A DNA stretch of 64,000 nt from Flavobacteriales bacterium (GCA_020635715.1 JACJZG010000007.1:61771-125770), one strand, 5' to 3'; counted from the first letter of the stretch, positions 9,514 to 59,350 are shown. Notes: a model not told the origin generated them from the letters alone. Program-made: numbers and translations.

Positions 9514-9530
9514 AGGTTAACTGTCCACCG

Positions 9531-9680
<150 letters not shown>

Positions 9681-9692
9681 AACTACTCAGAA

Positions 9693-47462: not shown

Positions 47463-49087
47463 CTACTCGATCCGCCTGCCCTCAGCAGGTCCGCCTTGCG
47501 TGAAGGTGAGCCGTTGCAAGCTGCCATCCGCTTCGGGATGGAATTCGATCGTGGCATCCACCACTTTTAGGAAGAACTTGTGGGGTGCTTCGCCGAACAC
47601 CTCCACCTCCGCCTGGCGCGGCGGCTGGAGGAAGAAGCGATCGCCCTCGGCGCGGAAGCTCAGGATGAAGTCCGGCATCAGCTCGTACTTGCCGACGTAG
47701 GCCTGCAATGTGGCGTTGTCGAGCGGGATGGCCACATGGGCGGCGGGCAGGGGCTTGCTGCTGCGCACGAGCAGCTCATCGCGTCCCCGCGTCAGGAAGC
47801 GGGCGCCGCTCACCCGGCCGTTGGTGCGGTGGAAGGTGAGCGTGGTCACATCCCCGGCAAAGAGGAAACGGTCGTCGCCGAGGTAGTGCAGGTCCATCTT
47901 GCGGGAGCCCTGGCGCTGGGAGTGCAGGCCGCCCGCATCGGCGGTGATGTAGCGTTCCACGCTGTCGGCGGACACGTATACGCCGGTGTATTCCGCAGCG
48001 GCCTCGGCGGAGAGCGGCAGCACCGTACCACCGTAGGGCTTGCCCAAGGCGATGGCAGCGAGCTTCGGGGCCAGGTAGCTCGCATCGCTGCTCTCGCGGT
48101 TCACCAGCACCGCCACGTAGATGTCCTCCTCGGGCAGGTAGAGGCTGTTGCTCACGAAGCCGTCTATGCCGCCGCTGTGCTCGATCGTGCGGCTGCCCTG
48201 CACGTTCTGGAATCCCCAGCCGTAGCCATACTCCTCCGTGCTTCCATCCGGGAAGCGCTGGCCTACATGGGCCTTGGCCAGCATGGCCGCGGATACCTGC
48301 TTGCCCGCGAACACGCTCGTGTTCCACTTCCAGAGGTCGCGCACCGTGCTGCGGATGCATCCGGCCGCACGGGGCCAGGTGAGGCTAATGGGCGGTGCAG
48401 GCTCCCATCCACTTTCGCTACGGGTGTAGCCGATGGCTTCCGCAGGTAGGGCGGGACCCGTGATGGCCGCGCTGCTCTGCGTCATGCCGGCCGGCTTGAA
48501 CAGGTACTCTCCGCATACGCCGTCCAGGACAGGCCGGATGCGCGTTCGACGATCGCGGTGAGCAGCAGGTAGCCACTGTTGCTGTAGCTGAATCGAGTAC
48601 CCGGTTCGAATTCCAGGTGCAGGTCCGCGAACAGGGCGATGATCTCCGTCAACTCGATGTCCTTCGCATACGCTTCAGGTTGGTAGAGGGGCAGATCGGT
48701 GAAACTGGGAATGCCGGAGCTATGCGTCAACAGGTGCGTGATGGTGATCGGCTTCTCCTTCCGGGGGAAGTCCACGTACTTCTGGATCTCGTCGTCCAGC
48801 TGGAGTTTCCCTTGTTCGGCGAGCTGCATGATGGCCACCGCCGCGAACTGCTTGCTCACACTGCCGATGCGGAACTGGTCCTCCGCCGTGAGCGCTTCAC
48901 CCTTCGCCATGTCGGCCATGCCGATGGCCCCTTCGTACAGCACCGTGCCGCCTTTGCTCACGATAGCCGCGCCCCCGGGCGCATCCGCCGTGAAGTGTTC
49001 CTTCATGGCCGCCTCGAAATCGGCCGGGGTCTGGGCGTGTGTGCTTGCCAGGAGGGCGAGCGCGGAAAGGAGGGAAGGGATGCGCAT
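47463..49087 (-). pseudogene. beta-lactamase-family serine hydrolase with extra C-terminal domain, split by a single frameshift near 48485-48545 (two ORFs 49087-48482 and 48485-47463)
   Basis: upstream ORF has signal peptide, SxxK (SVSKQ) and YSN motifs; downstream ORF continues the family sequence (…EYLFKPAGMTQSS…, HSGG); the two are in different frames with continuous homology across the junction. Confidence 0.7.
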
Positions 49088-49653: not shown

Positions 49654-50249
49654 GAGCGGGGCTTTGCTGGGTTGATCGGCACCGTTGTACGGGGATCGGA
49701 ATTGAAGTGTTGCGTATTAGACTCGAGCTGTTCTTGGGTTCACTTCATCTCCCCGGCAATGGATCGGGGCATCCACGGATCGTGACCATGCTGATGAGGC
49801 TGGGAGGCCTGGGTACGTGGCTTGTGCTCTTCCTGAGGCGTACCGGAGGTGGTTGATCCGACGTTTGGAGCGGTGCTGAGGCGGATAGAAGCTTCGGTGT
49901 TCCCGAATGCAGGAATAGTGATGCGTTCTGGAATGAGGCGCCCGGCGGAAGGAGGTTCGGGCTCCTGGGTTAGAGGCTTCAGGCGAATGAGGCCAGTGGT
50001 TAAGGGGTTCGAGGTAAAGGGGCGAAGAGGTGTCTTGGCTATTGGAGAACGGACTGATCAGGTGGCTTTGGCCAGGGGTTCAATGGCCAGCGGCTGGGCT
50101 AATGGTGGCCGGAGGCCAAGGGGTTCGTGGCTTGGTGGTCAGCTATGGAAGCGTGACTGGCGCACTTGGCCTATTGATCCACAGGCTGGAGCAGCAAAGG
50201 TTCACTGTCCGCATTGCCGCAGCAGCACACCATCGTGCCTCCAACACAT

Positions 50250-51317
50250 TCACTTCCCCCAGACCTCCACGAGCCGGTCGATATCCGCCGTGCTGTTATA
50301 GAAGTGGATGCCCACCCGGATGCCCTTGCCGCGGAAAGCCACCTTCACGCCGTGCTCCTCCAAGCGCTTCACCTGCGTTTCGTCACCCTGGAGGAGCAGA
50401 ATGCCCGAACGCCGATCGGCATCACGACCATGCAACACGACGATACCCGCTTCATCGAAACGATCGATGGCATGGTCGCACAAGGCGTTCACGTGTGCTG
50501 CGATGCGCTGCGGACCGATGGCGGCGATGCGCTCCAGCGCGTCCTGCAGGCGCACCAGGGACACCGGGTCGCGGTGACCGGCGTTGAGCAGGGCGACCGG
50601 ATCCACGCCGTTACGCTCCTTCAGCTCCGCACGCACGGCTTCGCTGAGGTGGATGAAGCCATTGCCGAAACCGGCCAGGGGCCACTTGTAGCCACTGCCG
50701 CCGACGATGTCGATGCCCGCGGCGCGGAGATCCCAGGGCACGGCGCACCACGACTGCGTGATGTCCACCAAGGACCAGGCGCCGAGCGCCCGGCAGTGGG
50801 CGGCCAGGGCGGGCACATCGATGCGGAAGCCCGATAACCACTGCACCTCGCTGATGGCGACCAATTGCGGCCGTTCGCGTTCCATGGTCTCCCGGACCCT
50901 GTCGAGGGAGATGGTGCCATCCGCTTCCAGCGGCACCACCACGCGCTGGAAGCCCGGCAGGGCGAAGGGTGCATGCAATGTGGGATAGTCCTGCTCGATC
51001 AGGAGCACCTTGGTTCGATGGGCCAGCAAGGGTGCCAGCTGCGCCAGCCCTACGGTGAAACCCTGCACCAGCGCCGTGCCCTCCACGGTGCCGCCGATGC
51101 TCGCCGCCACGGTACGCGCCACCTCCGCGTTTATACCGAAGATCCATTGGAACAGACGCGCGCTGCCCTCGCGCATCAAGCATTGGTGCTCCGCGTGCGC
51201 GGCCTGCACGGTGCTCTCCGCCATCAGCCCCATGGAGGAGGTGTCCAAGTAGCAGCGTTCCTGCAGGGCGGGGTAGGCGGAGCGGAGGGTGGCGTGGTCG
51301 GAGAGGGTGTTGGGCAT
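50250..51317 (-). CDS. aminotransferase class V-fold PLP-dependent enzyme (cysteine-desulfurase-like)
   Basis: 355 aa; fold-type I pattern with GGSGYKW PLP-lysine region. Confidence 0.7.
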   Translation of the reverse strand: MPNTLSDHATLRSAYPALQERCYLDTSSMGLMAESTVQAAHAEHQCLMREGSARLFQWIFGINAEVARTVAASIGGTVEGTALVQGFTVGLAQLAPLLAHRTKVLLIEQDYPTLHAPFALPGFQRVVVPLEADGTISLDRVRETMERERPQLVAISEVQWLSGFRIDVPALAAHCRALGAWSLVDITQSWCAVPWDLRAAGIDIVGGSGYKWPLAGFGNGFIHLSEAVRAELKERNGVDPVALLNAGHRDPVSLVRLQDALERIAAIGPQRIAAHVNALCDHAIDRFDEAGIVVLHGRDADRRSGILLLQGDETQVKRLEEHGVKVAFRGKGIRVGIHFYNSTADIDRLVEVWGK

Positions 51318-51429: not shown

Positions 51430-52518
51430 ATGGCATATTTCGACAACGCCAACATCGATGAAGAGGAGCGCAGAAACCACGCGTTCCAAGCAGTATGTGC
51501 AGTTCGCGAAGGTGTTAGTCTTGCGCGCAACGCCGGTCAGTCAATAACCTATGATCAGGCCTTCGATTTTATATATGAGATTAATCCGACCGCCCACGCT
51601 GGCATCATTCAGCTCTTGCTGCATCGGAACGACAATGACCTAGCACGCCGATTCAAAGAAACCGCACAGCTACTGTCCACGCCAGACAGGGTCGTGAATC
51701 CGGTGGACCTGATCAATGAGGAAATCTTGAAGCAACAGGCTATCATTAAAGACAAGAAGGATAAGGCCCAGCACACGATATCTTACATCAATCGACTCAT
51801 TGCCGCCCGAGACTACTTCGAACCGAGTGAGTTTCAATCAGAGAACCGAATTCTCAACCATGACATGTTTCTCCGTCAAAGGGCTGATGTTGTTCATCAG
51901 CTGTACAGCCATGATCACTATCAAGATTATGCGCTAGATAATCACCAGGTACTTAGGATGCGATTACTTCATCCGGACAAGGCAGAGGATATCCTAGGGG
52001 TGGACTTGATTTATGAGATTCACGATTTGAGCAAGATGAAGGTTCGATTTGTGCATCTTCAGTACAAGATGTGGGATGGTAAGGAACTCTATTTCTCGTC
52101 TTCAAAGAGTTTACGGAGCCAACTTGAAAAGATGGACTCGTGCCTCTGCAAGGCTGGTCACTGCTCTGACGCCAGCGGGCGTAAGTCGAATGACAGTTTT
52201 CGATTTCCTTTCTGTGCAGGATTCCTTCGTCCGACTAGCAAAATTCAGGATGCGAACAGCAAATTGGTGACCTCGGGCATTCATGTGCCGGCGTGTTTGG
52301 CAAACCGCTTGGCACAGACGTCCGTCAAGATTGACAAACCAGGAATTGCGCAGAGCTACATCAGTCATCACGTATTCGAAGAGGCATTCAACACGAACAT
52401 TCTCGGTTCGAAATGGATTGACCTCGATGATCTAAAGAAATTCTATGAGGACAAGGGCATTCTGAGTTACACTGATCGCATACGGATACACGCACAGCAA
52501 TTTGACCTCAGTTCTTGA
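51430..52518 (+). CDS. hypothetical protein, low-GC (~45%), candidate PD-(D/E)xK-like nuclease-fold protein with a Cys cluster (possible defence/abortive-infection gene)
   Basis: 362 aa from MAYFDNANI…; AT-rich codon usage unlike the rest of the window; …GVDLIYEIHDLSKMKVRFVHLQYKMW… resembles a D…(E/Q)xK nuclease core; CLCKAGHC…FPFCAGF Cys-rich segment. Confidence 0.5.
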   Translation: MAYFDNANIDEEERRNHAFQAVCAVREGVSLARNAGQSITYDQAFDFIYEINPTAHAGIIQLLLHRNDNDLARRFKETAQLLSTPDRVVNPVDLINEEILKQQAIIKDKKDKAQHTISYINRLIAARDYFEPSEFQSENRILNHDMFLRQRADVVHQLYSHDHYQDYALDNHQVLRMRLLHPDKAEDILGVDLIYEIHDLSKMKVRFVHLQYKMWDGKELYFSSSKSLRSQLEKMDSCLCKAGHCSDASGRKSNDSFRFPFCAGFLRPTSKIQDANSKLVTSGIHVPACLANRLAQTSVKIDKPGIAQSYISHHVFEEAFNTNILGSKWIDLDDLKKFYEDKGILSYTDRIRIHAQQFDLSS

Positions 52519-52654
52519 GATGCATTGTGAATCTGCATGCGCGATTGTAGCGGAAAGCCCACTGGCTGCTAATCCAGCCGAAGTCTTGTAGAGAAAAGCG
52601 CGACGGTGAGTCTCCTAGCCACCGGCACGCCCAGACATTCACGAAGCAAGTGTT

Positions 52655-52735
52655 CTACGACTGATCGAGCTTCTTCACCATCGTCAAGATCGCCGCCAAC
52701 GCCACGGTCTCGCTTCTCATTGATCACCGCGCTGT
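52655..52735 (-). repeat. degenerate copy of paaZ 3'-terminal segment (type II subfamily; 2-nt deletion and mutated stop region)
   Basis: …cttcaccatcgtcaagatcgccgccaacgccacggtctcg-cttctcattgatcac… aligns to copies at 54162 and 56446. Confidence 0.7.
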
Positions 52736-53040
52736 AATCCCTTGTTCACGCTATTCAGCGAATCAATTGTGACGACGTAGCCGCTCATGATGCTGCGCAG
52801 GACCTTCGCTTCCATCATGGCTTTATCCAGATCGTAAGTTCCGCGGTTCAAGGCGGCTCGTAATGAATCGATCTGAGCGCGTTGCACGTTCATCTCGAAC
52901 GCGATCTGCTCATTCTCTACTGACAGTGCGTTGTACTGCTCGAGCATGGAACCCAGCAGGTGCTTGAGGGAGTCGCAGTTGGATTGTGCGCTCAAGGTGG
53001 TGGAGCAGAGGAGGAGGAAAGGTAGAAGGAGGGGACGCAT
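52717..53040 (-). CDS. hypothetical secreted coiled-coil protein
   Basis: start at MRPLLLPFLLLCSTTLSAQ signal; lower GC. Confidence 0.4.
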   Translation of the reverse strand: MRPLLLPFLLLCSTTLSAQSNCDSLKHLLGSMLEQYNALSVENEQIAFEMNVQRAQIDSLRAALNRGTYDLDKAMMEAKVLRSIMSGYVVTIDSLNSVNKGLQRGDQ

Positions 53041-53121
53041 GGATGTCTTTGTCTTAGCTGCGGTGGTTGTAAAGATCTGGACAACGCTATGGTCTCGTGG
53101 TCGCATACTTCTCTTTCTCCT

Positions 53122-53685
53122 TCACACGGCAGCGATCGCCAGTCGCCACCCTTCCCGTGTCTCGTGGGCGTAGAGATGGAGGGCGATATCGCTCCCGCAG
53201 CCCATGCCGAAGTCGCGTGCGAAGAAGGCAAGGAACCCTTGCGAGGGGAGGAAGCGTCGGTGGTCGGTATCGGCGATCATGGTCTTGAGCGCCGGGGTAA
53301 AGAGGAAGTCGTACCGCTCCAGGGCATTGGCGGCGGTCATTTCGGTACCGCGGTGTTCGGCTTCGTGCTGCGCGAAGTAGGCGGTATCGCAGGTCACGGA
53401 GAAGTTCCACTCGTGAACGAGGAGTTGATGGATGGGATAGTCAAGCATGGCCACGACCTCGGTCCGGCGGTCGGCCAGCACGGCATGCTGAAAGCGTTGC
53501 CAGAACTGCGCGAGGGCGACGCTGTCGATCGGGATCTCTTCGCAACCGCCCTGGAAGGGAAGTTGCTCTTCCGGCAATGGGGTCTCTTCCAGCGCCGGGT
53601 TCGTACAGGCCAGTGTGAGGCAACTGATGATCAGGGAAAGGAGTAGCGCAGTGCGCAGCTTGGTCCGTCGTGCACAGCTTTCCAT
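53122..53685 (-). CDS. hypothetical lipoprotein
   Basis: lipobox LIISCLTLAC; lower GC. Confidence 0.42.
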   Translation of the reverse strand: MESCARRTKLRTALLLSLIISCLTLACTNPALEETPLPEEQLPFQGGCEEIPIDSVALAQFWQRFQHAVLADRRTEVVAMLDYPIHQLLVHEWNFSVTCDTAYFAQHEAEHRGTEMTAANALERYDFLFTPALKTMIADTDHRRFLPSQGFLAFFARDFGMGCGSDIALHLYAHETREGWRLAIAAV

Positions 53686-54128
53686 CAGTAAGTCGTATGC
53701 CAGTTGATGAAGTGGTTCCTCAGATCCTTCAACATCGCTCGCGTATAGATATCGTAGAGCTTCCCATTCGAGCTGAAGTAGGCAACGACCACCACGAAGG
53801 ACTTCGTGTAGATGAACTCATAGGTGGACCGGTCGTCGGGCGGGAAGAAGGCCTCCACGCTATCGGATACCGCCTTGTTGAAGAAATGGAGGCTCACGCC
53901 TTCGTTGTCCCCATCCTCCCGCGCCGTTAAGGGAGTGAAGAGATGGGCCGTGTATGCCTTCGTGCGTTTGCCGCCGATGGGGAACTCATGTACGCCCCAG
54001 TCACTGACCGTCCAGTCATTCGACAGTTCGTAGTCGAGTTGGGCAAGGCGTGCTCGTTGCTCACTATTCAGCTGTGCATGGAGGGTCGTTGCTAACCTTA
54101 GAAAGCCGATCAGAATGAGACATCGCAT
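53685..54128 (-). CDS. hypothetical secreted protein
   Basis: signal MRCLILIGFLRLATTLHAQ; lower GC (~45%). Confidence 0.42.
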   Translation of the reverse strand: MRCLILIGFLRLATTLHAQLNSEQRARLAQLDYELSNDWTVSDWGVHEFPIGGKRTKAYTAHLFTPLTAREDGDNEGVSLHFFNKAVSDSVEAFFPPDDRSTYEFIYTKSFVVVVAYFSSNGKLYDIYTRAMLKDLRNHFINWHTTY

Positions 54129-54161
54129 GCTCTTTGAACGCGACGGGAAAGACTGGATTGT

Positions 54162-54295
54162 TCAGTTCTGATCGATCCTCTTCACCATCGTCAAGATCGT
54201 CGCCAAGGCCACGGTCTCGCCGGTCTCATCGATCACAGCCTGTCCCGCCTTAGCGGAATTCACCAGCCACTTCACGATGCCTTTGTTACATGCGT
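54162..54295 (-). repeat. copy of paaZ 3'-terminal segment (encodes …GIVKWLV…VIDETGETVALATILTMVKRIDQN*), forming the end of a 62-aa ORF
   Basis: nucleotide and peptide identity to the paaZ C-terminus. Confidence 0.8.
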
Positions 54296-54778
54296 GTCCC
54301 CAAAAGCACTCCTTACATTGTCCGTGTCGCCCCAAAGTCGGCTTGCGCACCAGCTCGCAAGAAGGAGGGCGACGAGGTTAAGCCCTACGAATGAATCCAT
54401 GGGCTGTTGCCAGCTCACAAGAAAGGCGGACAGGCTGAACTTGAACTGCACGATGAGCGGTTCTTTCAACGGAACACCGACAACTAATGCAAGACCCGAA
54501 AAGAACTTGTAGGTGAAGACCTGGTCCACGGAGAAGGTGAAGACCTGGGTGAGTTGGATCAGGAATGCAAGGCGGAGAAATGCACCGGACCGCGCCTTCA
54601 AGCCCACGTATCCGCAATAGGCGGAAAGAAGGAAGAATAGAAATGCTGCGAAACAGACAAGCAGTTCCTCCGTCGAGAGCTCATTGCCCTGCAGCACCAT
54701 GATAATGACCAAGGCGCAGCCGAGGACCCCGCCAGCCAAATGATAGTAGGCCAGAAGTCTTGCTTGCGCCGGTTTCAT
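54272..54778 (-). CDS. hypothetical membrane protein (5-6 TM)
   Basis: 168-aa hydrophobic ORF. Confidence 0.42.
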   Translation of the reverse strand: MKPAQARLLAYYHLAGGVLGCALVIIMVLQGNELSTEELLVCFAAFLFFLLSAYCGYVGLKARSGAFLRLAFLIQLTQVFTFSVDQVFTYKFFSGLALVVGVPLKEPLIVQFKFSLSAFLVSWQQPMDSFVGLNLVALLLASWCASRLWGDTDNVRSAFGDTHVTKAS

Positions 54779-54784
54779 TTAGTC

Positions 54785-54925
54785 AGGTTGCTCAATTATC
54801 AACTTCATTCGGCTGGATCGTCGCCAGCATCGCCTTCGCGTAGCCGCTGCGGCGGAGCAAGGCGCCACGGTCTCGCCGGTCTCATCGACCACGTCCAAGA
54901 AGACTTCGAAGCATACGGTTCCATG
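54785..54925 (-). repeat. diverged copy of paaZ 3'-terminal segment with ~35-nt insertion
   Basis: …gcgccacggtctcgccggtctcatcgaccacgtcc… encoding …VFLDVVDETGETVA…. Confidence 0.7.
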
Positions 54926-54942
54926 TCTATTGGGGCGATGGG

Positions 54943-55206
54943 TTAATTGATCAGGTGCCATATGACAGCGAACGGCAGCACTAAGAAGAGAGCGAACCAC
55001 AACTCGATGTGGAGCTTGCGGGCGGGATTCTTCGGGAAGAACCGAAGGAGTAGAAGGCCATAGATCGTGTACAACGCTAGGAACCCCAGGCACAGCAGGA
55101 GTGCATGTCCTGAGAACATCGTATCTCCTGCGTTGTCGGCCGCAACGATCAGCATGCCGATCACCGCAGGGTTGATGGCAACCAATGCGTATGACCTCCA
55201 CTTCAT
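54943..55206 (-). CDS. hypothetical small membrane protein (3 TM)
   Basis: 87-aa hydrophobic ORF. Confidence 0.4.
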   Translation of the reverse strand: MKWRSYALVAINPAVIGMLIVAADNAGDTMFSGHALLLCLGFLALYTIYGLLLLRFFPKNPARKLHIELWFALFLVLPFAVIWHLIN

Positions 55207-55218
55207 CGCAATACGAGG

Positions 55219-55695
55219 TCAGTTCTGATCCAGTTTCTTGACCATCGTAAGAATGGTTGCCAACGCAACCGTTTCCCCCGTTTCATCCACCACATCCACC
55301 AACCACTTCACGATCCCCCGCGCCACATCCGCGCCCTTGGGTGAGTCGGCGGTCTTCGGCCGTTTCTTCCGCCCTCGCCAAAGCGCTTCGGCGGACGAAG
55401 CCTGATCGAGCTTCTCGCGGCAGGTGAACTTCACCTGCCCCGGGTCAAGCTCGGGGTGACAGGTGGAGCCGGGGTAGATGGGTCCCGCTGAGGCGGGATT
55501 TCGCTGCCGCTCAACTTGCGAGCGGCATTCCTCGATGCCGTAGTTGAGGAGCACCGGGCTTTTTGGCGGGGCCACGCCCTTTGGCAGGCTGAGGGTGTGG
55601 CCAGCGGTACGGCTGGGCACGACGGCTGTTCGCGGAACGTGATAAGCTTGCGCCGGGCCATGACCCAGGGCGAAGCGGGGCGCGTTCATGCTCAT
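55219..55695 (-). pseudogene. partial duplicate of the paaZ 3' end (~380 nt; MaoC hot-dog C-terminal region with indels), read-through ORF of 158 aa
   Basis: …PPKSPVLLNYGIEECR…IYPGST…VKFTCREKLDQ…KRPKTADSPKGADVARGIVKWLVDVVDETGETVALATILTMVKKLDQN aligns to PaaZ residues ~575-688 with three insertions; ~90% nt identity over the last 200 nt. Confidence 0.75.
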
Positions 55696-56042
55696 CGGAC
55701 CGTGATGCCATTACGGTCCAACTCGATCAAGCCCCCGTCTTTAAGCGCTTCGCACATCAGGTCGAGGTAGTTCATGATGAGGAGGATCAGCTCGGAGTTC
55801 CGGATGTTGCCTGTACCCACATACACCAACCGCTTCGGTTCTCCCTTCACCTCGTAAGCAGCGATGAAATCGGCATCCTTGGTCACGACCACCGCCCCTT
55901 CGCGGTCGGCGTGTGCGATGATGGCCTGGTCCGTGGTGAGATGCCCTTGCGGCAACTCTGAAGCATGAAGGGCGTGATGGCCGCGCTTCTTGAACGCCGT
56001 GGCCAGCTGATGCGGCAGCTGGGTGTCCACCAGCCAGTTCAC
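55692..56042 (-). CDS. DUF5615 family PIN-like toxin-like protein
   Basis: 116 aa; conserved MNWLVDTQLP… N-terminus; paired with upstream DUF433 gene (4-bp overlap). Confidence 0.62.
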   Translation of the reverse strand: MNWLVDTQLPHQLATAFKKRGHHALHASELPQGHLTTDQAIIAHADREGAVVVTKDADFIAAYEVKGEPKRLVYVGTGNIRNSELILLIMNYLDLMCEALKDGGLIELDRNGITVR

Positions 56043-56281
56043 TGCGCCGCGCGGTGGATGGATTTCACCTCGGTGACCTTGGCTGCGAATGCCAGGCAGG
56101 CCAGGAAGTCATCCTTCTCCAATTCGGGATGGTCGCGCATGATATCCTCGGTGCTCATGCCACTGGCCATCAGCTCCAACACGTTCTGAACTGGCCAGCG
56201 CATGCCGCGCACCACAGCCTTGCCGTGGCAGATGTTCGGATCGGTGGTAATGCGGGAAAGAAGGTCGACAGGACTGCTCAT
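56039..56281 (-). CDS. DUF433 domain protein (antitoxin-like partner of DUF5615)
   Basis: 80 aa; …ITTDPNICHGKAVVRGMRWPV… DUF433 core. Confidence 0.62.
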   Translation of the reverse strand: MSSPVDLLSRITTDPNICHGKAVVRGMRWPVQNVLELMASGMSTEDIMRDHPELEKDDFLACLAFAAKVTEVKSIHRAAQ

Positions 56282-56291
56282 GCTATCAAAG

Positions 56292-56441
56292 TTAGGTGGT
56301 CTTCGGCCTTGCGGCGCTCAGCACTTCGGTCAAGGACCTTCGCTTGAGCTTGCCGGTACGGATGCGCTCCACTTGCACCAAAGCCTTTGCGAGCTTGCTG
56401 CGTAGTTCCTGAACTTGCCGTTGGTGCCTCGTATGCACCAT
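56292..56441 (-). CDS. hypothetical basic 49-aa protein, first gene of the DUF433/DUF5615 unit
   Basis: MVHTRHQRQVQELRSKLAKALVQVERIRTGKLKRRSLTEVLSAARPKTT; 10-nt spacing to DUF433 start; not in supplied ORF track (under 60 aa). Confidence 0.25.
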   Translation of the reverse strand: MVHTRHQRQVQELRSKLAKALVQVERIRTGKLKRRSLTEVLSAARPKTT

Positions 56442-56445
56442 GTGT

Positions 56446-56538
56446 TCAGTTCTGATCAAGCTTCTTTAAAATCGTGAGGATAGTGGCCAGTGCCACGGTC
56501 TCGCCCGTTTCATCCACCACGTCCACCACGTACTTCAT
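56446..56538 (-). repeat. copy of paaZ 3'-terminal segment forming a 30-aa mini-ORF (MKYVVDVVDETGETVALATILTILKKLDQN*)
   Basis: nucleotide and peptide identity to paaZ C-terminus. Confidence 0.8.
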
Positions 56539-56539
56539 T

Positions 56540-56998
56540 TCAGATCGCTAGTTCAGGCACAAAGCCTGTGAGGACTTCCTTCACAGTCCCGGAACGCTTC
56601 TCTACGGTGAATCCATCTGCCAGTACTTCAAGCATGTCATCATGGAAGCAGAGGATGTAGTGCTTCACAGAAGCCCATCGCGTTGGGTCGTATCGGTCAT
56701 GCACGCTGTGGACCTTCTGCAGTTCCTTCAGCCAAGCTGAATTCTCCACCTCGTGAGCGCTGTAGGGATCAAGGCCCTTCCCATAAAGTGGGTGCCCGGA
56801 TAGGATCTCATCGTTGATCCCGCTGAACCGATGAGCCCGATCGCGATGGAAGGTAACAACGCCAACGCTTTCCTCTTCTTCAAGGGCAACGTTGTACAAA
56901 AGGGTCAAACCTCTATCGCTGGCAAGAACCACCGGGCAAGTTGCACCCGCGCTCCATTTCGGCTCCCAAGCAATGACACGCGCCCGCTCCATGATCAA
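56540..56998 (-). CDS. hypothetical protein (152 aa), start overlapping paaZ stop by 4 bp
   Basis: clean ORF, no motif recognised. Confidence 0.45.
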   Translation of the reverse strand: MIMERARVIAWEPKWSAGATCPVVLASDRGLTLLYNVALEEEESVGVVTFHRDRAHRFSGINDEILSGHPLYGKGLDPYSAHEVENSAWLKELQKVHSVHDRYDPTRWASVKHYILCFHDDMLEVLADGFTVEKRSGTVKEVLTGFVPELAI

Positions 56999-59061
56999 TT
57001 CTGATCCAGCTTCTTCACCATGGTGAGGATAGTGGCCAAGGCAACCGTTTCCCCAGTTTCATCAACCACATCCACCAGCCACTTCACGATCCCCCGCGCC
57101 ACATCCGCACCCTTCGGTGAGTCGGCGGTCTTCGGCCGTTTCTCCTGGTCCAGCTTCTCCCTGCACGTGAACTTCACCTTGATCGTTGATCCCGGGTACA
57201 CCGGCTTCAAGAAGCGGCACTCCTCGATGCCGTAGTTGAGGAGCACCGGGCCCTTCGGTGGATCCACGAAGAGGCCCGCCGCCCGGCTGAGGATGAAGTA
57301 GCCATGCGCCACGCGACCGGTGAAGGGCGTGCCGTCCAAGGCGTTCTCATCCATGTGCGCATAGAAGCGGTCGCCGCTCAGCGCGGCGAAGTCCTCGATG
57401 TTCTGCAGCGTCACCAGGTGGGTCTCACTGATCAGCGTGTCGCCGATGTTCAGCTCTTCGAAGTGCAGCTGGAAGGGATGCTTCTCGGTGATGTGGTAGG
57501 TGGCGCCCTGCTGGTATTGCTGGGTGAGGGCGGTGATCATGCTGGGGTGGCCCTGGATGGCGGTGCGCTGCAGGTAGTGCATCACGCCGCGCTTGCCGCC
57601 CATCTCTTCGCCGCCGCCCGCGCGACCGGGCCCTCCGTGTACCAATGTGGCCAACGGACTGCCGTGGCCGGTGTTCTCCTTGGCCATGTCGCGGTTGAGC
57701 ACCAGCATGCGGCCGTGGTGGCTGGCCGCGCCCCAGACGAATTGTTGCGCGTACTTGTCGTTGTGCGTGGCGATGGTTGCCACGAGCGAGCCCTTGCCGA
57801 GCTTGCTGAGCGCCACGGCATCGTCGAGGTCCTTGTAGGGCATCAAGGTGCTCACCGGACCGAAGGCCTCCACGTTGTGGCTCACCTGGTTCTTCCAGGG
57901 ATCGTTGTTGTAGAGCAGGATGGGGCTCATGAAGGCACCCTTCGCCGCGTCGGCACCGGTCACGTTCACGCTGTCCGGATCGCCGAAGACCACTTGCGAA
58001 CCTTTCAGCAGTTCGCCGAGCGCGCGCTTCACTTCCTCGCGCTGCGTCTTCCCCGCCAGCGCGCCCATGCGTACACCTTCCGCACGCGGGTCGCCGATCA
58101 CGGTGCTGCCGAGGCGCTTGCCCAGGGCGATCTGCACATCCTCCAGCACGTTCTCGGGCACCATGATGCGCCGCGCGCCGGTGCAGCGTTGGCCGCACTT
58201 GAGCGTGATCTCGCGCGTGACCTCCTTGATGAAGAGGTCGAACTCCTCGGTGCCCGGCACGGCGTCGGGGCCGAGCACGATGGCGTTGAGGCTGTCGGCC
58301 TCCATGTTGAAGGGCACGCTCTCGTCCACGATGCGTGGGTGGCGCTTGAGCATGCGGCCCGTGCTGGCGCTGCCGGTGAAGGTGACCACGTCCTGCTGCA
58401 TCACGTGGTCCAGCAGCCCATCGGCGCTGCCGCAGATGAGCTGGATGGCGCCCTCGGGCACGATGCCGCTGGCCACGATGTCCTTCACCATGGCCTCGGT
58501 GAGGTAGCTGGTGACGGTGGCGGGCTTCACCACGGCGGGCACGCCGGCCATCCAGTTCACCGCCACCTTCTCCAGCATGCCCCAGATGGGGAAGTTGAAG
58601 GCGTTGATGTGCACGGCCACGCCCTCCTTGGGCACCATGATGTGGTGACCGATGAAGGTGCCGTTCTTGCTGGTCTTGATGGCCTCGCCGTCCACATAGA
58701 AGGGCATGTTGCCCAGCGTGCGGCGCAGGCTCGCGTTGGCGAAGAGGTTGCCGATGCCGCCCTCGATGTCCACCCAGCTATCGGGCTTGGTGGCGCCGGT
58801 CTTGTAGCTGATCTGGTAGTACTTGTCCTTGCGCTCCATCAGGTGGAGGGCGAGGGCCTTGAGCATGCGGCCCCGCTCGGGGAAGGTCATTTTACGCAGG
58901 GGTGGGCCGCCCACCTCACGGCCGTACTTCAGCATCGCGCCGAAGTCGAGTCCGCCGGAGGAGGTGGTGGCGATCAGTTCGCCGGTGGAGGCGTCAACGA
59001 GTTCCGCTTGCTTGCCTGAACCGGCCACCCATTGGCCAGCGATGTAGTTCTTCAGTTGCAT
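56995..59061 (-). CDS. paaZ: bifunctional aldehyde dehydrogenase / enoyl-CoA hydratase (MaoC hot-dog) PaaZ
   Basis: 688 aa; N-terminal ALDH fold; C-terminal MaoC hot-dog (…GDTLISETHLV…, terminal β-strands RGIVKWLVDVVDETGETVALATILTMVKK). Confidence 0.85.
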   Translation of the reverse strand: MQLKNYIAGQWVAGSGKQAELVDASTGELIATTSSGGLDFGAMLKYGREVGGPPLRKMTFPERGRMLKALALHLMERKDKYYQISYKTGATKPDSWVDIEGGIGNLFANASLRRTLGNMPFYVDGEAIKTSKNGTFIGHHIMVPKEGVAVHINAFNFPIWGMLEKVAVNWMAGVPAVVKPATVTSYLTEAMVKDIVASGIVPEGAIQLICGSADGLLDHVMQQDVVTFTGSASTGRMLKRHPRIVDESVPFNMEADSLNAIVLGPDAVPGTEEFDLFIKEVTREITLKCGQRCTGARRIMVPENVLEDVQIALGKRLGSTVIGDPRAEGVRMGALAGKTQREEVKRALGELLKGSQVVFGDPDSVNVTGADAAKGAFMSPILLYNNDPWKNQVSHNVEAFGPVSTLMPYKDLDDAVALSKLGKGSLVATIATHNDKYAQQFVWGAASHHGRMLVLNRDMAKENTGHGSPLATLVHGGPGRAGGGEEMGGKRGVMHYLQRTAIQGHPSMITALTQQYQQGATYHITEKHPFQLHFEELNIGDTLISETHLVTLQNIEDFAALSGDRFYAHMDENALDGTPFTGRVAHGYFILSRAAGLFVDPPKGPVLLNYGIEECRFLKPVYPGSTIKVKFTCREKLDQEKRPKTADSPKGADVARGIVKWLVDVVDETGETVALATILTMVKKLDQN

Positions 59062-59149
59062 GGGAGCGAAGTTCGGGAGGAAAGGCTATCCGCCGATGGC
59101 GCAGATGACACAGATGAATGCCAAGCTGTTCTGAGCTATCTGTGACATC

Positions 59150-59350
59150 GGCGCCATCTGTGGATGAATGGCATTTAGGCGTGTCGGCTCGTCCATCGGC
59201 TCGCTCAGGATGCCGCCTAAGTCGAGGCCGCCTGTAACGGTGGTGTTGATGAACTCGCCGGTGAAGGCGTCGTGGAGTTCGGCGTGGGAGCCGATGCCTT
59301 TGGCCCAGGAACCGGCGATATGATCCTCCAACTGCACGCGTCCCTTGCCG
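59150..59350 (-). repeat. diverged (~70% nt) duplicate of the paaZ 5' end (first ~50 codons) lying ~120 bp upstream of paaZ
   Basis: translation VQLEDHIAGSWAKGIGSHAELHDAFTGEFINTTVTGGLDLGGIL aligns to PaaZ MQLKNYIAGQWVAGSGKQAELVDASTGELIATTSSGGLDFGAML. Confidence 0.7.

Follow-up and report, generated by a model that had tools for sequence, protein, structure and literature searches.

The 3' end of paaZ as a probable cassette insertion hotspot in a clade of high-GC Flavobacteriales, with homologous recombination as its likely motor

Integrative and conjugative elements (ICE) and cis-mobilizable elements (CIME) build up by accretion at the 3' end of fda in Streptococcus thermophilus. Accretion of ICE and CIME at gene 3' ends has been reviewed (PMC5704250), integrative islands accrete in tandem at ssrA of Dehalococcoides (PMC3146451), and in the tycheposons of Prochlorococcus newer arrivals beside the gene push older ones outward, with partial tRNAs scattered among them (bioRxiv 10.1101/2020.12.28.424599). 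This paper addresses a locus behind paaZ, a gene for a metabolic enzyme, in a stretch of 64,000 nucleotides (nt) of a Flavobacteriales bacterium (GCA_020635715.1, JACJZG010000007.1:61771-125770), referred to as the window. The best reading of the locus is a cassette hotspot anchored in the tail of paaZ, which represents island accretion at a gene 3' end in a form previously undescribed for paaZ; a search of the literature turned up no report in which paaZ serves as an integration site. We give a probability of roughly 60% to the reading that the paaZ 3' end is a cassette insertion hotspot in one high-GC Flavobacteriales clade, with homologous recombination as its probable motor.

Like the described cases of accretion at gene 3' ends, the paaZ array keeps the target gene whole by means of element-borne sequence, carries partial 3' copies of the target between successive insertions, has its newer arrivals beside the gene and the older ones displaced outward, and retains integrase-less remnants. 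Direct repeats from the target 3' end flank the inserted units, with five tail copies in the window and 93 orphan tails in related loci. The paaZ array differs from these cases in that no integrase was seen in about 40 arrays, in that a unit usually consists of one small gene (median 0.6 kb) where the islands extend over several kilobases, and in that crossovers in the target seem to vary in position. Because the target is the coding 3' end of a protein gene, 30 to about 100 codons long, the repeat evolves under coding constraint. The paaZ locus is closest in behavior to 3'-end accretion, but is not filed as a member of it, because no integrase was found in the window or, within 10 kb on each side, at 160 related loci.

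Chromosomal integrons share with the paaZ array small, co-oriented and mostly promoter-less ORFan cassettes, toxin-antitoxin genes, a fixed platform and an apparent entry at the proximal side. The paaZ array lacks intI, however, uses a coding gene end as its repeat with no attC palindrome, and has a metabolic gene as its platform. Folding of the tails on both strands gave attC-like z-scores near 0 (-1.8 to +0.3) in 10 of the 11 segments, and Rfam and tRNA scans of the window returned no match. The polymorphic-toxin genes rhs and cdiA have orphan C-terminal modules downstream, and there, as at paaZ, fragments of the upstream gene are repeated downstream with small genes after each, and recombination can reshuffle the locus; paaZ, in contrast, has no variable C-terminal domain, and PaaZ is a metabolic enzyme. 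Minimal mobile elements of Neisseria are hotspots flanked by core genes and exchanged by transformation and homologous recombination (PMC3787668). Their gene content changes, as that of the paaZ array probably does, without an element-encoded recombinase, through flank homology and with variable crossovers. At paaZ, however, both homology arms come from one gene end, and therefore each exchange would leave a duplicated tail, so that cassettes would accumulate serially with no replacement.

The comparison was made with the 80 best genome loci, drawn from 595 paaZ relatives matched in genome contigs, and with 80 metagenome contigs (related loci are numbered with an L below). The nearest paaZ relatives belong to uncultured high-GC Flavobacteriales metagenome-assembled genomes (MAGs), chiefly from activated sludge and freshwater. 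In the window, the resident paaZ is an intact open reading frame (ORF) whose domains are recognized by Pfam (Aldedh 8.8e-51, MaoC_dehydratas 5.4e-22), and five extra paaZ 3' ends lie downstream on the same strand, with stops at 56446, 55219, 54785, 54162 and 52655. A degenerate ETVALA(T/A)ILT pattern has 5 sites in the window versus 0 in 100 shuffles, and the sixth segment, at 54785, retains VVDETGETVA only and is then broken. The spare copies between the cassettes represent the last ~30 codons of paaZ, and the start codons of the cassette genes fall 2-34 nt past the tail stops. No further tail-type array was found elsewhere in the 64-kb window. The gene, its tail copies and the flank are as follows, where GC3 is the GC content at third codon positions and the type I and type II wordings are the two sequence variants compared below.

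56995-59061, minus strand: resident paaZ, 688 amino acids (aa), aldehyde dehydrogenase and MaoC hot-dog domains, open to its stop codon
56995-57057, minus strand: end of resident paaZ, last ~20 codons and stop, type I wording, an imported replacement (GC3 0.64; nearest relatives the first orphan tail of L006/L089, 91%)
56446-56538, minus strand: tail copy 1, 30 codons and stop, beginning exactly at codon -30 as ATG; a mosaic of type II and resident wording
55219-55695, minus strand: long paaZ 3' fragment of ~150 codons with three insertions, 91% identical to 56995-57143, ending in tail copy 2
55219-55311, minus strand: tail copy 2, type I wording, the end of the long fragment
54785-54900, minus strand: tail copy 3, decayed; VVDETGETVA is retained, and a ~34-nt insertion and a degenerate rest come after its ETVA
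54162-54284, minus strand: tail copy 4, in type II wording, interrupted in frame by an insertion with a GC-rich hairpin (54237-54260; stem TCCCGC/GCGGAA)
52655-52727, minus strand: tail copy 5, distal, the displaced native paaZ end; ends in QS and a stop like single-copy relatives, and has decayed in its 5' part through a 2-nt deletion
52530-52654, minus strand: native downstream flank of paaZ (GGCGTGCC ... GGGCTTTCCGCTACAATCGC), now 4.3 kb away from the gene; motif at 52549-52560

A preliminary description of this stretch, made from its sequence, had sorted the copies into two subfamilies. Its pairing of the long copy at 55219 with the resident end is borne out, as the two are 91% identical over 149 nt and 85% over the last 66 nt, where they differ by 10 synonymous and 0 non-synonymous codons. 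The second subfamily is partly sustained. The motif GAGACCGTGGC / ...GGTCTCATCGA is common to the copies at 56446, 54785 and 54162, which there agree with each other at 88-91% and with the resident end and the 55219 copy at 76%, but the copy at 56446 is intermediate. Its last 66 nt match the resident end at 80%, the 54162 copy at 79% and the 55219 copy at 77%, and the copy at 56446 is a mosaic whose 5' half has type II wording and continues into GCCACTATCCTCAC, identical in the resident end. The copies at 54162 and 52655 are 79% identical. All six segments described at first do exist on the minus strand, and all intact fragments finish in the same ...ATILTMVKKLDQ(N/S) peptide and stop, but the statement that every type II copy encodes one peptide applies only to 56446 and 54162, which still encode ETGETVALATIL. 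The copy at 54785 is broken by its ~34-nt insertion, and that at 52655 by a 2-nt deletion that shifts the frame upstream of ETVALAAIL, along with a T-to-A change. The reported synonymous divergence is real, as over the last 22 codons the three intact copies show 10:2, 10:0 and 11:2 synonymous to non-synonymous codon differences from the resident end.

Where the preliminary description goes wrong is in its polarity. It took the resident end and the 55219 copy as native and the type II copies as brought in by mobile DNA, and relatives with the type II wording were indeed found (L002, L004, L005, L012, L097, L101 and L104, at 85-93% identity), but these are single-copy paaZ genes of the same clade, and the wording is hence that of the clade itself. 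The best match of the single-copy ends of L002, L004, L005 and L012 is the copy at 54162 or at 52655 (86-93%). Codon usage points the same way, with a GC3 of 0.91 in the paaZ body and 0.86-0.91 in the type II tails versus 0.59-0.64 in the resident end and the copies at 56446 and 55219. Across the clade, the GC3 of the last 22 codons is 0.65 in array-proximal tails versus 0.79 in single-copy genes (Mann-Whitney p=0.005) and versus 0.80 in distal tails of the same arrays (Wilcoxon p=0.0015), where the p-values are indicative only, as the loci are not phylogenetically independent. Along the gene, the window paaZ is 87-93% identical to its relatives up to ~60 nt before the stop and 67-80% thereafter, and its GC3 changes 25 codons before the stop. 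The flank at 52530-52654 follows the paaZ stop directly in the single-copy loci L004, L012 and L002, and in L003, L008 and L010 it stands behind the last tail. Because of the wording of single-copy relatives, the host codon usage, the native flank and the divergence along the gene, the type II wording is native to this clade, and the last ~20 codons now on paaZ, together with the 55219 copy, are the imported piece. A nearest-neighbour analysis of the tails agrees with this polarity. With the flank behind the distal copy and foreign wording on paaZ itself, the array therefore lies inside the original gene end.

Some observations lend the opposite polarity a little support, since the type II copies sit between low-GC3 cassettes, and the copy at 54162 is not merely this genome's own old end. 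It contains an 18-nt in-frame insertion with a hairpin, by which NSAKAGQA replaces DV; an insertion of this kind (DPAKAGQVV) also occurs in L122, L146, L149 and L162. It ends in KRIDQN, and its nearest relatives are the single-copy resident ends of L097/L101/L104 (90%). Given the hairpin insertion and the KRIDQN ending shared with other lineages, the copies at 54162 and 54785, native-like in wording, may have arrived with the cassettes of close relatives. The polarity of the preliminary description, with the type I wording native and the type II copies imported, is nevertheless very improbable and largely refuted, as the type II wording is that of single-copy relatives and of the host codon usage, the distal type II copy is joined to the native flank, and the resident end departs from the relatives only in its last ~60 nt, at a GC3 of 0.64. 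That distal copy, at 52655, is nearest to the resident paaZ ends of L002/L005/L103 and to distal tails of L001/L003.

The native-flank element itself, seen in the window and in L003, L004, L008, L010 and L012, is intergenic and has two GC-rich units (GGGGTCGCGCTTTCCGCTGCAAGTCC ... GGGCTTTCCGCTGCAATCGC) with no Rfam match. Past it, between the flank and the aminotransferase gene, lies an ORF of 362 aa (51430-52518, plus strand) with a GC content of ~0.50-0.56 versus 0.62, for which no Pfam, NCBIfam or PADLOC match was found. This position looks like a second insertion point, where relatives carry restriction and defence systems. In L008, Pfam identifies an EVE-domain protein by a McrBC-like AAA_5 ATPase past the native flank, and translations read by eye, with no Pfam scan, suggest a type I restriction-modification system in L001, a C5-methyltransferase system in L003 and Mrr in L006.

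Arrays of the same kind were found in 8 of the 13 closest genome loci (75-92% protein identity), in 0 of the 67 more distant ones, and in 32 of the 80 metagenome contigs. Each array has 2-8 tails, spaced by 38 nt to 7.8 kb with a median unit of 616 nt, and 127 of the 147 ORFs within arrays point in the direction of paaZ. Intact tails make up 85% of the proximal tails versus 50-56% of the orphan tails. Among 48 distinct intact orphan tails, variation is concentrated at third codon positions, with an entropy of 1.32 versus 0.57 and 0.46 at positions 1 and 2. The nearest relative of every window tail is in another genome, and cassettes of the window recur at other ranks elsewhere: the toxin-antitoxin unit holds the second place in the window, leads the array in L010, L081 and L106 and comes third in L087; the 87-aa cassette opens the array of L084, and a homologue of the ORF o152 stands fifth in L162. 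Because of the synonymous variation, the foreign nearest relatives and the cassettes at other positions, each tail must once have served as a working paaZ end, and DNA has moved in. A tandem duplication of the paaZ end within this genome, followed by drift and with no outside DNA, would account for the frameshifts or insertions in two copies and for the decay of half of the orphan tails across loci. This is very improbable, as intact copies differ by 10-13 synonymous versus 0-2 non-synonymous codons, the tails find their closest kin in other genomes, and the genes in between, ORFans without relation to paaZ and lower in GC3, are shared with other genomes, where they stand at other ranks; on this point the preliminary description, which doubted local duplication, was right.

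As a separate observation, the same frameshifted tail variant (...ATCTTGCGATCACGGAAG... for ...ATCTTGACGATGGTGAAGAAG...) is present in orphan tails of several genomes (L008 12708-12751, 13243-13287 and 14319-14389; L081 7144-7236; L084 1101-1166; L139 2671-2721). A tail that has lost its function has thus been spread among lineages or been retained in them.

The window comes from a MAG, and repeats of ~93 nt are close to assembler k-mer sizes, so an assembler might have chained strain variants of the paaZ end into a false array. This is scarcely credible. Unique genes stand between the repeats, and the long-read, Nanopore-based MAGs L007-L010 have the same architecture. Two independent contigs also repeat parts of the window array, one (L126) with 99.7% identity over 1457 nt and the other (L161) with an identical o152 between the same two tails, and because these come from other data sets, the array is not an assembly artefact.

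The units between the tails of the window are listed below from the gene outward. All are co-oriented with paaZ, and their GC3 is 0.60-0.78 versus 0.80-0.90 in the surrounding genes.

56540-56992, minus strand: cassette 1, a 150-aa ORFan whose ATG lies 2 nt past the paaZ stop (GC3 0.60)
56292-56441, minus strand: Phd-like antitoxin remnant, C-terminal half, fused to tail copy 1 (found by tblastn)
55692-56281, minus strand: cassette 2, a toxin-antitoxin pair, with a DUF433 antitoxin (56039-56281) and a DUF5615/PIN-like toxin (55692-56042)
54943-55206, minus strand: cassette 3, an 87-aa predicted membrane ORFan (GC3-weighted ORF call)
54272-54778, minus strand: cassette 4, a 168-aa hydrophobic ORFan with no family match
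52717-54128, minus strand: cassette(s) 5, three ORFans (53685-54128, 53122-53685, 52717-53106), none with a family match, whose N-termini resemble signal peptides

Cassette 1 has no Pfam, NCBIfam or PADLOC match, and NCBIfam and PADLOC searches with the cassettes of the window were likewise without a match. Its homologue in L162 is 71% identical and also lies between paaZ tails of a paaZ array. Intact 72-aa counterparts of the Phd-like remnant occur in L009 (12153-12371) and L010 (14087-14303), with a RelE-like ORF after each. The two members of cassette 2 are supported by Pfam scores of 8.2e-23 and 3.1e-19, the sole Bacteroidetes -7 box of the window array (TAACTTTG, at 56294) is by this cassette, and the DUF433/DUF5615 pair is found in 13-17 other arrays at varying rank. 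In L010 and further loci too, long paaZ fragments come after the toxin-antitoxin cassette. Cassette 3 follows the resident paaZ end directly in L084 (80.5% over 507 nt). The sequence ATGAAGTGG at the start of this gene was considered as a crossover core and rejected, as the L084 homologue starts likewise and it is probably the gene's own start. Homologues of the ORFs o147 and o129 occupy separate units in L139, at 85% and 73% nucleotide identity. Clustering of 187 array ORFs showed the DUF433/DUF5615 pair (13-17 loci) and a Phd/RelE-like pair to dominate; the rest are ORFans, and 25 of the 53 clusters are singletons. One unit, a tail-flanked 7.8 kb in L083, holds two C5 methyltransferases and McrBC-like partners.

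The left limits of the imported wording are one pointer to homologous recombination. The upstream limit of the low-GC3 wording in resident genes lies at 24-25 codons in the window, L084 and L130, at 36-48 in L003, L006 and L095, and at 89-102 in L001, L087, L106 and L132. Two arrays that are 98.8% identical (L136 and L143) differ by a four-unit indel of 2 kb whose junction is inside a tail near the stop. Homologous recombination is favored because of these variable left limits, the mosaic tails and the indel junction within a tail. In the process that we envisage, the donor would be a linear piece made of a paaZ 3' fragment with its stop, one or a few co-oriented genes, and another tail piece. 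It would enter a naive gene by double crossover, on the left anywhere in the shared paaZ 3' homology and on the right in the tail, with ordinary RecA-type homologous recombination as the motor. The incoming fragment would become the new working end of paaZ, keeping the enzyme intact, and the former end would be shoved downstream to decay there; repeats of this process would build the array, and recombination of tails with one another would give mosaics, deletions and shuffling. The oldest piece in the window would then be the native end with its flank (52530-52727) and the newest import the present paaZ end (56995-57057). The resident ORF is intact, and the native end is displaced distally together with its flank. 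An orphan would also be expected to combine a 5' boundary inherited from the donor with a native 3' part and flank, and the copy at 52655 fits, as its 5' codons (GTG ATC.AT GAG) are of the 54162 type and its QS end and flank are native. The cassettes would be expressed by read-through from paaZ.

Searches for an enzyme or a carrier gave little. Scans for tyrosine- and serine-recombinase signatures in the window and 160 related loci found nothing real, Pfam assigned 20 large ORFs beside arrays to restriction, defence and housekeeping families and to no recombinase, and no enzyme-like family recurs among the 187 clustered ORFs beyond the toxin-antitoxin pairs and paaZ fragments. Viral contigs and a phage collection searched with the tail peptide had no match, and a plasmid collection gave only ordinary full-length paaZ on three Saprospira plasmids.

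Several points weigh against homology as the motor. The recombinase scans rest on motif heuristics and a Pfam subset, within 10 kb on either side, so that an enzyme with its gene elsewhere may have escaped them. More directly, 27 of the 93 orphan tails start exactly at codon -30 (G or A followed by TGAAGTGG), after at least 10 unrelated upstream sequences; 41 of the 93 are long and 25 shorter or decayed. Such a precise start is met more typically with a site-specific cut than with exchange driven by homology, and the homology model has to derive it by inheritance from a small number of founder junctions. GC-rich hairpins confined to arrays, and often at the -30 junction, have no explanation in the homology model. 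The initial duplication still needs a separate, unexplained founding event, and the model leans on DNA uptake by these bacteria, by which the donor would enter the cell. Finally, the cassette genes have 75-85% nucleotide identity between genomes, not above that of paaZ itself, and therefore part of the sharing may reflect vertical descent with rearrangement and not a recent transfer.

The hairpins (for example AGCCTGCCCCGGGCCCCGACCCGGG and TCCCGCTAAGGCGGGA) lie inside orphan paaZ fragments, often in frame and always just before GTG. They are found in the window (54237-54260), L003 (12672-12691), L136 (2597-2615, 4645-4663), L156 (833-852, 2129-2148, 3885-3904) and other loci. In a survey of ~1.8 Mb of related loci and the window, the pattern CCCCGGG-N3-8-CCCGGGG had 20 matches in 14 loci, all within arrays, and 0 in the flanks or the 64-kb window. 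One hairpin is present in one and absent from the other of two 98.8%-identical arrays. As a side observation, at least six orphan tails have ATG for the native GTG at the -30 boundary (window 56538, L088 1227, L008 14795, L149 3385, L133 5902, L162 7866). These often overlap or abut the stop of the preceding ORF, and a gene caller annotated one, in L162, as a 37-aa gene; the ATG may reflect translational coupling via a mini-ORF in the tail, or a junction inside the codon.

The -30 junctions and the array-specific hairpins are the reason why a trans-acting site-specific enzyme stays the main rival. On this account, a tyrosine, serine or other recombinase acting in trans would cut the paaZ core at codon -30, between N and TGAAGTGG. 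The sharp boundary in 27 orphan tails and at least 10 upstream contexts (with a variable first base, A, G or C) suits such an enzyme, as do the hairpins that adjoin the junction and lesser peaks in the boundaries, near -22 and near -87 to -90; the orphan 5' boundaries as a whole peak at -31 and at -87 to -90. Integron-like co-orientation, units of ~0.6 kb, toxin-antitoxin cassettes, many ORFans and the apparent entry of new units on the gene-proximal side point in this direction too. Yet the 64-kb window and the 10 kb on either side of 160 related loci yielded no recombinase, imported sequence in resident genes starts at a distance from the stop that varies between 24 and ~100 codons, and the L136/L143 indel has its junction near the stop and not at -30. 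The putative core also varies at wobble positions (GTCAAATGG versus GTGAAGTGG) with no strictly identical overlap, and the tails have no attC-like fold. We therefore hold site-specific accretion to be doubtful, and attach the same doubt to its particular form, in which circular integrase-less islets or integron-like cassettes would be inserted, perhaps guided by the hairpins. An unlikely extension is a cassette-capture platform of a kind not described before, in which the coding 3' end would act as both attI and attC, an enzyme in trans would cut at -30 (between N and TGAAGTGG) and the hairpins would serve as signals, making it a Flavobacteriales analogue of integrons unrelated to intI. Homologous recombination at the paaZ tail is the reading that we retain as the more probable.

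The neighbours of paaZ are a DUF4886 protein, a DUF5122 protein and the aminotransferase. Directly upstream of its start, a 28-nt inverted repeat (59088-59165, 86% complementary, with a 22-nt spacer) could be an operator or regulatory site. Elsewhere in the window, the heptamer GCCTACT is repeated in tandem at 9530-9684 (22 copies, 92% matches), and ~600 nt at 49660-50250, between an HTH_26 gene and the aminotransferase gene, are without a convincing ORF and have a G-over-C skew of +0.295. A beta-lactamase-family gene (47463-49087, minus strand) is broken into two ORFs with a 4-nt overlap, the first (201 aa) with the N-terminal half and the second (340 aa) with the C-terminal half and DUF3471, and is either a frameshifted pseudogene or a sequencing error.

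The locus has consequences for annotation, as the wording now on a gene need not be its ancestral end, and for genome mining, where runs of gene-end pseudocopies flag landing pads. If it is true that homology alone drives the accretion, this would be a simple and overlooked route to integron-like arrays; if a dedicated enzyme exists, it would represent a new recombination system. In this clade of Flavobacteriales, toxin-antitoxin modules, defence systems and ORFans have come to land at the end of one metabolic gene, which shows that such an end can turn into a landing pad across a whole clade, to all appearances with no integrase encoded by the elements.

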